Assembly (NCBI RefSeq): GCF_003334355.1
Contig: NZ_QOWP01000036.1
From: Escherichia coli
GTDB lineage: Bacteria > Pseudomonadota > Gammaproteobacteria > Enterobacterales > Enterobacteriaceae
Length of the DNA stretch: 33,910 nucleotides
Direction: 5' to 3' (one strand)
Under the pieces are notes generated by a model that was given only the letters and a program-made list of their open reading frames with translations, searched no databases and had not been told where the DNA came from. The position numbers and the translations under genes are program-made. Within the stretch, counting starts at the first letter, position 1, and each line of letters opens with the position of its first letter. Positions 1-33,910 of this stretch are shown piece after piece.

Positions 1-55
1 TTTTTCGTCTTGCGACGTTAAGAATCCGTATCTTCGAGTGCCCACACAGATTGTC

Positions 56-75
56 TGATAAATTGTTAAAGAGCA
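56..75 (-). promoter_or_regulatory. rrn leader boxA antitermination element
   Basis: Minus strand reads TGCTCTTTAACAATTTATCA, matching the rrn boxA core GCTCTTTAACAA; the flanking leader (CACTCGAAGATACGGATTCTTAACGTCGCAAGACGAAAAA) matches the sequence upstream of E. coli 16S genes as I remember it. Confidence 0.75.
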
Positions 76-107
76 GTTGCGACGCGGCTTTCAGCTCACT
101 GTCGCGA

Positions 108-300
108 GGTGGCGTATATTACGCTTTCCTCTTTCAGAGTCAACCCTGAATTTCAGGATTTTTTTCTCTTCGTTATTCCGACCATCCTGTGAAGTGTTTC
201 ACGTTGTCGTCTCAACGGAGGCGCATTATAGGGATCCCAATTTTTTGCACAAGTATTTTTTTGATCTTTTTTTCTGTTTGTTGTTTTTTCACCCTTTTTG
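108..300 (-). promoter_or_regulatory. rRNA operon tandem promoters P1/P2 with upstream A/T-rich UP/Fis region (rrnD-like), transcribing leftward out of the window
   Basis: Minus strand P2: TTGACT (143..138), 16 bp spacer, TAATAT (121..116), then GCGCCACC discriminator. P1: TTGTGC (252..247), 16 bp spacer, TATAAT (230..225), then GCGCCTCC. An A/T-rich tract lies upstream of P1 (253..300 on plus). Confidence 0.7.
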
Positions 301-404
301 CTGCAATCGCACACAAAACGGTGCTTTTTTGCATACTAAAAGACTTGCACAAGGCCAATAATGCCCCCAAAGTCATTAGTAAATCATTTATTGCTGAGGT
401 AAGT

Positions 405-959
405 ATGTCTGATGTTTTACGCCCATACCGCGATCTTTTTCCACAAATCGGTCAGCGCGTAATGATCGACGATAGCAGTGTCGTGATTGGTGACGTTCGT
501 CTGGCTGATGATGTGGGGATCTGGCCGCTCGTTGTGATTCGTGGAGATGTACATTATGTACAGATCGGAGCACGCACCAATATCCAGGATGGCAGTATGT
601 TGCATGTCACTCATAAATCCTCGTACAACCCAGATGGCAACCCATTAACCATTGGCGAAGATGTCACTGTTGGTCACAAGGTGATGCTCCACGGCTGCAC
701 CATTGGCAATCGAGTTTTGGTTGGGATGGGCTCAATTTTACTTGATGGCGCAATAGTAGAAGATGATGTGATGATTGGTGCGGGTAGTCTGGTCCCACAA
801 AATAAACGGCTGGAGAGCGGATATCTGTATCTCGGTAGCCCCGTCAAACAGATCCGCCCGTTAAGTGATGAAGAGAAGGCTGGGTTACGCTATTCCGCGA
901 ATAATTACGTGAAATGGAAGGACGAATATCTGGATCAGGGTAACCAGACCCAGCCTTGA
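405..959 (+). CDS. yrdA: YrdA, hexapeptide-repeat (gamma-carbonic-anhydrase-like) protein
   Basis: ORF 189..959 trimmed to the ATG at 405 (MSDVLRPYRDLFPQ...), giving 184 aa, the remembered YrdA length. Left-handed beta-helix hexapeptide repeats are visible. Confidence 0.9.
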   Translation: MSDVLRPYRDLFPQIGQRVMIDDSSVVIGDVRLADDVGIWPLVVIRGDVHYVQIGARTNIQDGSMLHVTHKSSYNPDGNPLTIGEDVTVGHKVMLHGCTIGNRVLVGMGSILLDGAIVEDDVMIGAGSLVPQNKRLESGYLYLGSPVKQIRPLSDEEKAGLRYSANNYVKWKDEYLDQGNQTQP

Positions 960-1192
960 TCATCTTCACTTTGTTCCTGAATTAAGTTTTCCGCTTCTTC
1001 TTCCAGGTCCCAGCGATGCTGACGAAAACTCGCTAACCACTGTTCTGGCGTATCTCCAGTAAAGCGATACGCCAGACTCTCGCCAGAGATCGCGCATGTC
1101 AGTTGCATACCATTCACGAGAGCGGGAAAACATACACATTTTTTATTCTCGTCCCACTCTTCCCTGTCCGGAAACTGGATGGCCTGATTCAC
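935..1192 (-). CDS. yrdB: YrdB, DUF1488 small protein
   Basis: 85 aa [21 protein letters not shown]... matches remembered YrdB. Its 3' end overlaps the yrdA 3' end by 25 nt (convergent). Confidence 0.85.
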
Positions 1193-2007
1193 GCGGACAA
1201 TTCCTCCTGCAATTGCTTTATAACTGGTTCTACGTCAGGCAGAACACCGTGCCAGAGAAGAAAGGCATGAGCCGCCTGTGCCACCAGCATTCCTAAACCA
1301 TCAGCATTACGCTTTGAGCCTCGCTGCTCACACCATGCCAGAAAAGGAGTTTTTCCTTTCTGATAGAACATGTCATAGCAATAAATGCCTGGATGAATGA
1401 GCGATGACGGGATCGCCGGAATATCACCACTGATGCCACTGGATGTTGCATTAATAATGAGATCAAACTCATGACCTTCCAGTTCGTCCATACTCAACGC
1501 CTGAATACTGCCAGTGTGCGCAAACAATTTAGCCAACTCTTCCGCGCGGGATACCGTCCGATTAGTTATTGTCACCGCACAGTCCAGGGAAAGGAGTGGC
1601 AGTAGTACGCCGCGAGATGCTCCACCAGCGCCGATAAGCAGAATACGTAAACCAGGGCGGATAAAAGACAGACGTTCCAGATCGCTTAACAAGCCTACAC
1701 CATCGGTATTGTCACCCAGCAGGCGTCCATCTTCTAACCGCATGAGGGTATTAACAGCACCAGCCAACGCTGCCCGTTCAGTAAGCTCATCCGCTCTGGC
1801 AAAAGCCTCTTCTTTAAAAGGCACCGTCACATTCGCACCTTTACCACCAGCACTAAAGAAAGCGTTCAGTGTGTTGATGAAATCATTGATGGGTGCCAAC
1901 ACGCGCCCATAGGGATGTTCAATATTCAGTTGCTGAGCAAATTGCTGATGAATGAATGGCGATTTGCTGTGGGCTATCGGATTACCAAAAACAGCATAGG
2001 TTTCCAT
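1189..2007 (-). CDS. aroE: Shikimate 5-dehydrogenase
   Basis: ORF trimmed to [21 protein letters not shown]... (272 aa). Rossmann GAGGA motif present; 4 nt overlap with yrdB start. Confidence 0.95.
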
Positions 2008-5382: not shown

Positions 5383-6330
5383 GTGTCAGAATCACTACGT
5401 ATTATTTTTGCGGGTACACCTGACTTTGCAGCGCGTCATCTCGACGCGCTGTTGTCTTCTGGTCATAACGTCGTTGGCGTGTTCACCCAGCCAGACCGAC
5501 CGGCAGGACGCGGTAAAAAACTGATGCCCAGCCCGGTTAAAGTTCTGGCTGAGGAAAAAGGTCTGCCCGTTTTTCAACCTGTTTCCCTGCGTCCACAAGA
5601 AAACCAGCAACTGGTCGCCGAACTGCAGGCTGATGTTATGGTCGTCGTCGCCTATGGTTTAATTCTGCCGAAAGCAGTGCTGGAGATGCCGCGTCTTGGC
5701 TGTATCAACGTTCATGGTTCACTGCTGCCACGCTGGCGTGGTGCTGCACCAATCCAACGCTCACTATGGGCGGGTGATGCAGAAACTGGTGTGACCATTA
5801 TGCAAATGGATGTCGGTTTAGACACCGGTGATATGCTCTATAAGCTCTCCTGCCCGATTACTGCAGAAGATACCAGTGGTACGCTGTACGACAAGCTGGC
5901 AGAGCTTGGCCCACAAGGGCTTATCACCACGTTGAAACAACTGGCAGACGGCACGGCGAAACCAGAAGTTCAGGACGAAACTCTTGTCACTTACGCCGAG
6001 AAGTTGAGTAAAGAAGAAGCGCGTATTGACTGGTCACTTTCGGCAGCACAGCTTGAACGCTGCATTCGCGCTTTCAATCCATGGCCAATGAGCTGGCTGG
6101 AAATTGAAGGACAGCCGGTTAAAGTCTGGAAAGCATCGGTCATTGATACGGCAACCAACGCTGCACCAGGAACGATCCTTGAAGCCAACAAACAAGGCAT
6201 TCAGGTTGCGACTGGTGATGGCATCCTGAACCTGCTCTCGTTACAACCTGCGGGTAAGAAAGCGATGAGCGCGCAAGACCTCCTGAACTCTCGTCGGGAA
6301 TGGTTTGTTCCGGGCAACCGTCTGGTCTGA
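5383..6330 (+). CDS. fmt: Methionyl-tRNA formyltransferase
   Basis: 315 aa [23 protein letters not shown]... with a GTG start at 5383, 14 nt after the def stop. Confidence 0.97.
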
Positions 6331-6375: not shown

Positions 6376-7665
6376 ATGAAAAAACAACGTAATTTACGTA
6401 GCATGGCGGCCCAGGCCGTTGAACAAGTCGTCGAGCAAGGGCAATCATTAAGCAACATTCTGCCACCGCTCCAGCAAAAAGTTTCCGATAAAGACAAAGC
6501 ACTTCTTCAAGAGTTGTGCTTTGGCGTACTGCGTACGCTTTCGCAGTTAGACTGGCTGATTAATAAGTTAATGGCCCGTCCGATGACCGGCAAACAGCGG
6601 ACCGTGCATTACCTGATTATGGTTGGTTTGTATCAACTGCTTTATACCCGCATTCCACCTCATGCTGCGCTGGCTGAAACGGTTGAAGGCGCTATCGCAA
6701 TTAAGCGTCCGCAACTTAAAGGGTTGATAAACGGTGTATTACGCCAGTTCCAGCGTCAGCAAGAAGAGTTATTAGCCGAGTTTAATGCCAGTGATGCACG
6801 TTATCTGCATCCTTCCTGGTTGCTGAAGCGTCTGCAAAAAGCGTATCCAGAGCAGTGGCAATCCATCGTCGAAGCCAATAACCAGCGTCCGCCAATGTGG
6901 CTGCGTATTAATCGTACGCATCATTCCCGCGACAGCTGGCTTGCATTGCTGGATGAAGCAGGAATGAAAGGTTTCCCGCATGCGGATTACCCTGATGCTG
7001 TACGTCTGGAAACACCTGCACCTGTTCATGCGCTACCTGGTTTTGAAGACGGATGGGTTACCGTTCAGGATGCATCAGCACAAGGTTGCATGACCTGGCT
7101 TGCGCCACAAAACGGTGAACACATTTTGGATCTTTGTGCCGCCCCCGGCGGTAAAACAACGCATATCCTTGAGGTGGCACCAGAAGCGCAGGTTGTTGCG
7201 GTTGATATCGACGAACAGCGCCTCTCTCGGGTTTACGACAATTTAAAACGCCTTGGTATGAAGGCGACCGTGAAACAAGGTGATGGCCGTTACCCTTCTC
7301 AATGGTGTGGCGAGCAACAGTTTGATCGCATTTTATTAGATGCGCCTTGTTCAGCAACCGGTGTGATTCGTCGCCATCCAGATATTAAATGGTTACGTCG
7401 CGATCGCGATATCCCGGAACTCGCGCAATTGCAGTCTGAAATTCTCGACGCCATTTGGCCGCATTTAAAAACCGGTGGAACTCTGGTCTATGTCACCTGT
7501 TCGGTGTTACCGGAAGAGAATAGCCTGCAGATTAAAGCCTTTTTGCAACGTACCGCTGATGCCGAACTTTGCGAAACAGGAACACCAGAGCAACCGGGTA
7601 AACAAAATCTACCTGGTGCCGAAGAGGGCGACGGCTTCTTTTACGCTAAGCTAATCAAAAAGTGA
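6376..7665 (+). CDS. rsmB: 16S rRNA m5C967 methyltransferase RsmB (Sun)
   Basis: ORF 6355..7665 trimmed to the ATG at 6376 ([18 protein letters not shown]...), giving 429 aa. NusB-like N-terminus and SAM-MTase motifs ([19 protein letters not shown]). Confidence 0.95.
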
Positions 7666-33833: not shown

Positions 33834-33910
33834 TGAACCGCCCCGGGTTTCCTGGAGAGTGTTTTATCTGTGAACTCAGGCTGCCAGATCATCGTTTCCG
33901 ATGGAAGCAT
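33834..33910 (-). mobile_element. Terminal portion (inverted repeat plus transposase 3' end) of an IS3-family, IS629/IS1203-like insertion sequence; continues beyond the window
   Basis: Sequence starts TGAACCGCCCCGGGTTTCCTGGAG..., a 5'-TG terminus and IR that I recall for the IS629/IS1203/IS3411 group. The minus strand encodes a protein C-terminus ending ...ASIGNDDLAA-stop directly inside the IR-proximal region. Confidence 0.6.
33876..33910 (-). CDS. IS3-family transposase (OrfB), last 10 codons only; partial
   Basis: Minus-strand frame ...A-S-I-G-N-D-D-L-A-A with TGA stop at 33876..33878, consistent with an IS629-like OrfB C-terminus as remembered. Confidence 0.5.
   Translation of the reverse strand, partial: ASIGNDDLAA

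Follow-up and report, generated by a model that had tools for sequence, protein, structure and literature searches.

The first 404 nucleotides of this 33,910-nt stretch of Escherichia coli DNA (hereafter the window) run up to the start codon of yrdA, and they raise the question of what lies on the opposite strand, facing away from that gene. An earlier note, made from the sequence alone, had read them as the leader of a ribosomal RNA operon on the minus strand, divergent from yrdA, and both the identity to MG1655 and the annotation agree with that reading. We find that window positions 1..404, read on the minus strand, are almost certainly the control region of rrnD together with the first 216 nt of its transcribed leader, and nothing that we found contradicts this. 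Because this is the known rrnD control region, there is nothing new in it, and the observation is correct but ordinary. Its value is one of annotation only: it sets the orientation of the window, places its origin in a chromosome of E. coli or Shigella type, and identifies the rrnD-yrdA end of a region that extends through the ribosomal protein operons to gsp.

Placement of the stretch upstream of rrnD

On the minus strand, window 1..404 corresponds to the E. coli rrnD upstream region and is identical to MG1655 at 403 of 404 positions. Over a longer span, window 1..1200, the two share 1199 of 1200 bases, and the sole mismatch is at position 175. A megablast search with these 1200 nt returned matches in all 5426 complete E. 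coli genomes, of which 5421 cover 80% or more of the query; the top matches, at 99.9% identity, are annotated with yrdA, yrdB, and aroE. In the window, the divergent neighbour is yrdA (405..959, plus strand), which RefSeq annotates as a gamma carbonic anhydrase family protein. Its ATG at 405 is preceded, 5 nt upstream, by a GAGG Shine-Dalgarno at 396..399. The RefSeq annotation of the matching region places yrdB and aroE next, which is the flank of rrnD.

In MG1655, the equivalent of window position 1 is followed by 69 nt of leader and then by AAATTGAAGAGTTTGATCATGGCTCAG, the annotated 16S rRNA, so that the 16S 5' end is 70 nt beyond position 1, with GAAGAG at 75 nt. Since the 16S gene is outside the window, we infer its presence from homologous genomes, and in these the earlier note was right to expect the gene just to the left. 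Its predicted distance of 100 to 150 nt was too long, however, and the MG1655 distance of 70 nt is well inside the 200 nt that it had set as the limit for finding 16S. Each of ten E. coli records, MG1655 plus nine more, reaches 16S 68-69 nt past the position-1 equivalent, and eight E. coli alleles besides MG1655 have 16S and the divergent yrdA arranged alike. The MG1655 operon then continues in the order 16S, tRNA-Ile, tRNA-Ala, 23S, 5S, tRNA-Thr, 5S, the layout of rrnD. On the rrnD reading, TGAATACCAAGTCTCAAGAGTGAACACGTAATTCATTACGAAGTTTAATTCTTTGAGCATCAAACTTTT and then AAATTGAAGAGTTTGATCATGGCTCAG are expected to the left of position 1, the sequence there running on into TGAATACCAAG...AAATTGAAGAGTTTGATCATGGCTCAG within about 100 nt. 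The left edge of the window can be marked in annotation as 69 nt short of the 16S gene.

To compare operons, we aligned the window with the 400 nt upstream of each 16S gene in the six other MG1655 rrn operons. The window is the same as rrnD in this seven-operon alignment, and only rrnD matches it upstream of P2. Everything from ACTGCTCTTTAACAATTTATCA to the window edge is invariant in all seven operons; the region upstream of P1 and the P1-P2 spacer are operon-specific. A second alignment covered nine E. coli alleles of 96-100% identity. Here most of the variation fell in the boxB loop and in the P1-P2 spacer, where it includes indels of 1-2 nt within an A-run, and P1, P2, boxA, and boxC showed no variation. 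The identity, the motif positions, and this conservation across operons and alleles are all direct observations.

These alignments bear on whether the region could instead belong to another rrn operon or be a recombinant hybrid promoter, for example one derived from the rrnD/rrnE exchange that strain W3110 is said to carry. The leader from P2 onward is almost exactly common to three operons: over the span that starts some 20 nt upstream of the P2 -35 and reaches to 16S, that of rrnH is identical and that of rrnE departs in the boxB loop alone, and the rrnE type of this loop also occurs in some rrnD alleles of E. coli. In rrnE and rrnH, however, the region upstream of P1 and most of the P1-P2 spacer differ from the window. 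Of the seven operons, rrnD alone has the P1 -35 TTGTGC, this UP element, this spacer, and a G start, an 81-mer from the spacer (135..215) occurs once per genome, and the yrdA-yrdB-aroE flank is that of rrnD. For the part inside the window, another operon or a hybrid is already refuted by these comparisons, and we consider it scarcely credible. Alternatively, the leader might be an orphan fragment, with the sequence breaking off or being rearranged at the window edge and no 16S gene after it. The window does end inside the leader, its other end is also inside a repeat (an insertion sequence), and rrn operons are places where assemblies commonly break and recombination occurs. Against this, every one of the ten records reaches 16S within the distance given above, 80% or more of the 420-nt stretch is present in 5417 of the 5426 genomes, and the window edge may simply be a sampling cut, which leaves an orphan leader highly improbable.

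The tandem promoters

The earlier note had reported the motifs of two promoters and a boxA, and each of these occurs once in the 33.9-kb window, at the place it gave. The agreement goes well beyond chance, given the near-identity to MG1655 rrnD and the location of the motifs in alignment columns that are invariant in the seven operons. P1 occupies 216..252 on the minus strand, with a -35 of TTGTGC (252..247), a 16-bp spacer, and a -10 of TATAAT (230..225). A G+C-rich discriminator, GCGCCTCC, follows at 224..217 and includes GCGCC at 224..220, so the proposed arrangement TTGTGC-16 bp-TATAAT-GCGCC is borne out in full at 252..220. By alignment, the start base would be the G at 216, 9 nt past the -10. 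Together with an A/T-rich UP element at -60..-40, these features match the published architecture of rrn P1, which has a UP element at -60..-40, a G+C-rich discriminator at -8..-1, and a start 9 nt past the -10 (bioRxiv 2020.06.05.136721). Both TCCCTATAATGCGCC and the TTG of the P1 -35 are invariant in the seven MG1655 rrn operons. The base 9 nt past the -10 is G in rrnD only and A in the other six, which agrees with GTP versus ATP initiation at rrn P1 (PMC9239199). A generic sigma-70 scan misses P1, which scores below threshold because its -35 fits only three of six consensus positions; the promoter is identified by homology, not by consensus.

Upstream of the P1 -35, positions 253..275 are 83% A+T, versus 50% for the window. 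The UP element itself, CAGAAAAAAAGATCAAAAAAA, is at 256..276 on the minus strand, corresponding to -60..-40 of P1, and aligns with the rrnB P1 UP element. By analogy, the C-terminal domain of RNA polymerase's alpha subunit would bind at 276..256. The earlier note had described an A/T-rich tract of UP/Fis type, and the A/T richness stands; the strict Fis consensus GNNYRNNWNNYRNNC, on the other hand, has no matches in 1..404. Across the whole window, 53 strict matches were found versus about 68 expected, which is no enrichment, and a relaxed scan (at least 6/7) gave nothing convincing upstream of P1.

A candidate for Fis site I was found solely through positional conservation across operons, and not by the consensus scans. 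In each of the seven rrn operons, a G-N13-C 15-mer lies 27-28 bp upstream of the -35. In the window this is GGGTGAAAAAACAAC at 280..294 on the minus strand, centred at 287, or -71 from P1 +1, and its G at 294 and C at 280 are two of only three invariant columns upstream of the -35. The rrnD 15-mer scores 5/7 against the Fis consensus, and those of four other operons score 7/7. Fis site I of rrnB P1 is centred at -71 (PMC2885671), and Gaal et al. describe rrnD as having P1 and P2, with P1 activated by upstream Fis sites (PMC5110994). On the strength of the conserved position at -71, the rrnB site I position, and the account of Gaal et al., we name 294..280 as a candidate, and probable, Fis site I. 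No counterparts of Fis sites II and III could be located upstream of rrnD P1, and a bioRxiv paper on the insulation of ribosomal promoters makes no mention of rrnD or yrdA.

The closest known system is MG1655 rrnD itself, where the yrdA-rrsD intergenic region has the same flanking gene and the same motif positions and differs from the window only at 175 (T in the rRNA sense in the window). The reference rRNA promoter, rrnB P1, shares with the window a UP element at -60..-40, a 16-bp spacer, TATAAT, a G+C-rich discriminator, a start 9 nt past the -10, and, centred at -71, a Fis-type site of the form G-N13-C. The two differ in the -35 (TTGTGC in the window, TTGTCA in rrnB P1), in the discriminator (GCGCCTCC versus GCGCCACC), and in the start base, which is G and GTP-sensing in rrnD but A and ATP-sensing in rrnB P1. 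The UP sequence is also different, Fis site I is weaker in the window (5/7 versus 7/7), and the P1-P2 spacer is shorter.

P2 was located at 107..143 on the minus strand, with a -35 of TTGACT (143..138), a 16-bp spacer, and a -10 of TAATAT (121..116), followed by ACGCCACC; transcription would start near 109..107. It fits the expected TTGACT-16 bp-TA(A/T)TAT pattern about 110-120 bp downstream of P1. The hexamers and spacer given for P2 in the earlier note stand, but the GCGCC that it placed after them does not: the discriminator is ACGCC, and TAATATGCGCC occurs nowhere in the window. The P2 hexamers are invariant in all seven operons, as are TTGACTCTG and GCGTA of this promoter. P2 is the only match of the generic promoter scan in the stretch, and the overall counts from that sigma-70 scan are no higher than in shuffles.

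The one base that differs from MG1655, at 175 (T for C in the rRNA sense), is at P1 +42, in the variable P1-P2 spacer. The 81-mer 135..215 that contains it has no match of at least 99% identity among the 5256 matching complete E. coli genomes, which makes the base private to its source. Some 67 nt separate it from the P2 start downstream, variation within the region is greatest here, and spacer positions near it differ between alleles. That it alters upstream activation of P2 is a suggestion that we hold to be weaker still than the small-protein reading of 376..212 discussed below. The spacer also contains, on the plus strand at 145..167, a palindrome, CCTGAATTTCAGG, followed by a T-run, which looks like a terminator antisense to rrnD and directed toward yrdA. 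The palindrome is common to rrnD, rrnE, and rrnH and is broken in the O103 and STS63 alleles. Because terminator-like matches are not clearly enriched over shuffles, it is probably incidental.

The transcribed leader and its processing

For the leader, published coordinates were converted by a simple rule, in which window position n - 69 stands for -n relative to mature 16S. The 20-mer TGCTCTTTAACAATTTATCA at 75..56 on the minus strand holds boxA, with its core, TGCTCTTTAACA, at 75..64. It is single in the 33.9-kb window and invariant in the seven operons and the nine E. coli alleles. The core corresponds to -144..-133, just past P2, and a published boxA deletion, -147..-133, maps to window 78..64 and spans it (PMC10250234). 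BoxA is the binding site of NusB-NusE and seeds the rrn antitermination complex (PMC10250234). BoxC, TCTGTGTGGG, with the motif as given in PMC10250234, is at 41..50 on the minus strand and is also single in the window and invariant in the seven operons. We did not use the boxA-boxC spacing of 18-19 nt (PMC10250234), as the element boundaries adopted here give 12-13 nt.

On the 5' side of boxA is the predicted boxB hairpin, at 79..105 on the minus strand. Its minimum free energy of -13.5 kcal/mol has a z of only -1.17, so by energy alone the fold is unexceptional and not better than shuffles. All seven operons nevertheless fold a hairpin ending 2-4 nt before boxA, with differing stem sequences, and since the two leader classes have stems that sit one or two alignment columns apart, we make no claim of strict covariation. 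In the boxB loop (84..97), the rrnD alleles of STS63-1-E and OkiPb01683 (loci L013 and L015) carry the rrnE-type GTGCGCTAAAG--CGCG and not the rrnD/rrnH type. This pattern is consistent with gene conversion between rrn operons, as judged from the alleles.

Downstream of boxC, a CGTC-GCAA-GACG hairpin at 6..17 on the minus strand (-86..-75 from mature 16S) forms in the co-fold and agrees in its coordinates with helix hA as defined in PMC10250234. When leader 78..19 was folded with the 54 nt just 3' of 16S, the trailer being taken from MG1655, the pairing energy was -67.5 kcal/mol, versus -24.1 +/- 3.8 for 200 shuffles. That the leader around boxC is complementary over a long stretch to the sequence 3' of 16S is a direct observation, and from the strength of this pairing the window carries, at 19..78 on the minus strand, the 5' strand of the 16S leader-trailer helix, the substrate of RNase III. 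Biogenesis of the 30S subunit requires that helix, which RNase III cuts (PMC10250234, PMC3985665). The cut that yields 17S RNA is 115 nt before mature 16S (PMC3985665), and by arithmetic -115 would be about window 46, inside boxC. The critical pairs at -113..-89 likewise map to window 44..20 (PMC10250234). BoxA, boxC, hA, and the leader-trailer helix are all at their published positions (PMC10250234). An Rfam scan of the whole window found no family covering the rrn leader, so it offers no independent model match.

The rrn leader also resembles the lambda nut sites, in which boxA RNA likewise recruits NusB/NusE to make a termination-resistant polymerase (PMC10250234). It differs from them in its order, boxB-boxA-boxC, in using SuhB and S4 and no N protein, and in that boxC doubles as part of the 16S processing helix (PMC10250234).

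Taken with the literature, from which the start sites, factor binding, and cleavage are drawn, these elements suggest how the region may work. Sigma-70 RNA polymerase would start at the two tandem promoters. P1, beginning at the G at 216, would be the strong, growth-rate-regulated one, boosted by contact between the UP element (276..256) and the polymerase alpha subunits and by Fis bound upstream, probably at site I (294..280). The discriminator, rich in G+C, and the start 9 nt past the -10 would make for a short-lived P1 open complex, and hence for sensitivity to GTP concentration and to ppGpp/DksA. P2, with its -35 at 143..138, would supply basal expression. The nascent leader would then present boxB, boxA (75..64), and boxC, and by analogy boxA would recruit NusB/NusE, other Nus factors, SuhB, and S4 to form the termination-resistant rrn antitermination complex (PMC10250234). 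Leader 78..19 would later pair with the sequence just past 16S, and an RNase III cut at about window 46 would give the 17S precursor, with mature 16S beginning 70 nt past the window edge. Tandem rrn promoters, the UP element, Fis, initiating-nucleotide sensing, boxA antitermination, and leader-trailer processing have been in the literature for decades, and all that is described here was already known.

Open reading frames and the rest of the window

Four open reading frames fall in the stretch: 77..361 on the plus strand, 189..404 as an upstream extension of yrdA, and 314..153 and 376..212 on the minus strand. The earlier note had dismissed the 77..361 and 189..404 entries as genes, and we agree on both, with two corrections. 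The entry given as 189..404 is really 189..959, of which 189..404 is the part upstream of the yrdA ATG at 405, and the note left out a third frame, 376..212 (54 aa), that the NCBI pipeline annotates.

Whether at least one of the four encodes a protein can be judged from the nine-allele comparison. What favours coding is that 189..404 and 376..212 are open in all nine E. coli alleles, and that 376..212 is the hypothetical protein WP_000172051.1 in a minority of RefSeq genomes. However, the seven non-K-12 alleles all have 77..361 frameshifted or stopped, and in each of them a frameshift removes the stop codon of 314..153; the 1-2 nt indels in the A-run are the cause in both cases. In 189..404 and 376..212 all of the substitutions alter an amino acid, so that no selection on a protein is apparent; what keeps both frames open is the conservation of the underlying DNA as UP element, Fis site, and promoter. 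No Shine-Dalgarno precedes the ATG at 376, whereas that of yrdA at 405 has its GAGG. Most of the RefSeq records examined annotate nothing in this stretch, 189..404 being unannotated in those examined, and the predicted peptides are low-complexity translations of poly-A/poly-T tracts. None of the four behaves like a gene in the allele comparison, and we rejected the coding potential of all of them; that any one encodes a protein is very unlikely. It is just as doubtful that the 54 codons of 376..212 specify a genuine small protein whose gene spans the Fis/UP/P1 region of rrnD, and WP_000172051.1 at 212..376 looks like an annotation artefact. The rrnD reading explains the spurious ORF-caller entries at 77..361, 189..404, 314..153, and 376..212.

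Elsewhere in the window, 13 of the 16 single-base differences from MG1655 are in gsp (type II secretion) genes, at 24734..32746. Among them are five synonymous changes in a 61-bp span of gspE (29642..29702) and six that alter an amino acid, in gspH, gspD, gspA, and gspB. Outside gsp, position 7493 gives Ala373Val in rsmB, and position 5739 changes codon 119 of fmt synonymously. No difference from MG1655 falls in the ribosomal protein operons that lie in between. The only Rfam match in the window is Alpha_RBS (RF00140, 102.7 bits) at 13608..13719 on the minus strand, upstream of rpsM, a translational operator that binds S4 and belongs to the alpha ribosomal protein operon. At the far end, 33835..33910 are the terminal 76 nt of an IS3-family element of IS1203/IS629 type whose insertion lies in the gspI/gspJ region; the flank, as far as 33834, is a 100% match to gspJ/gspI, and the junction is found in 0 of the 5426 genomes. 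Taken with this insertion, the differences clustered in gsp suggest a close relative of K-12 from outside the E. coli RefSeq set, possibly a Shigella. With an rrn operon at one end and an insertion sequence at the other, both ends of the window are in repeated sequence.
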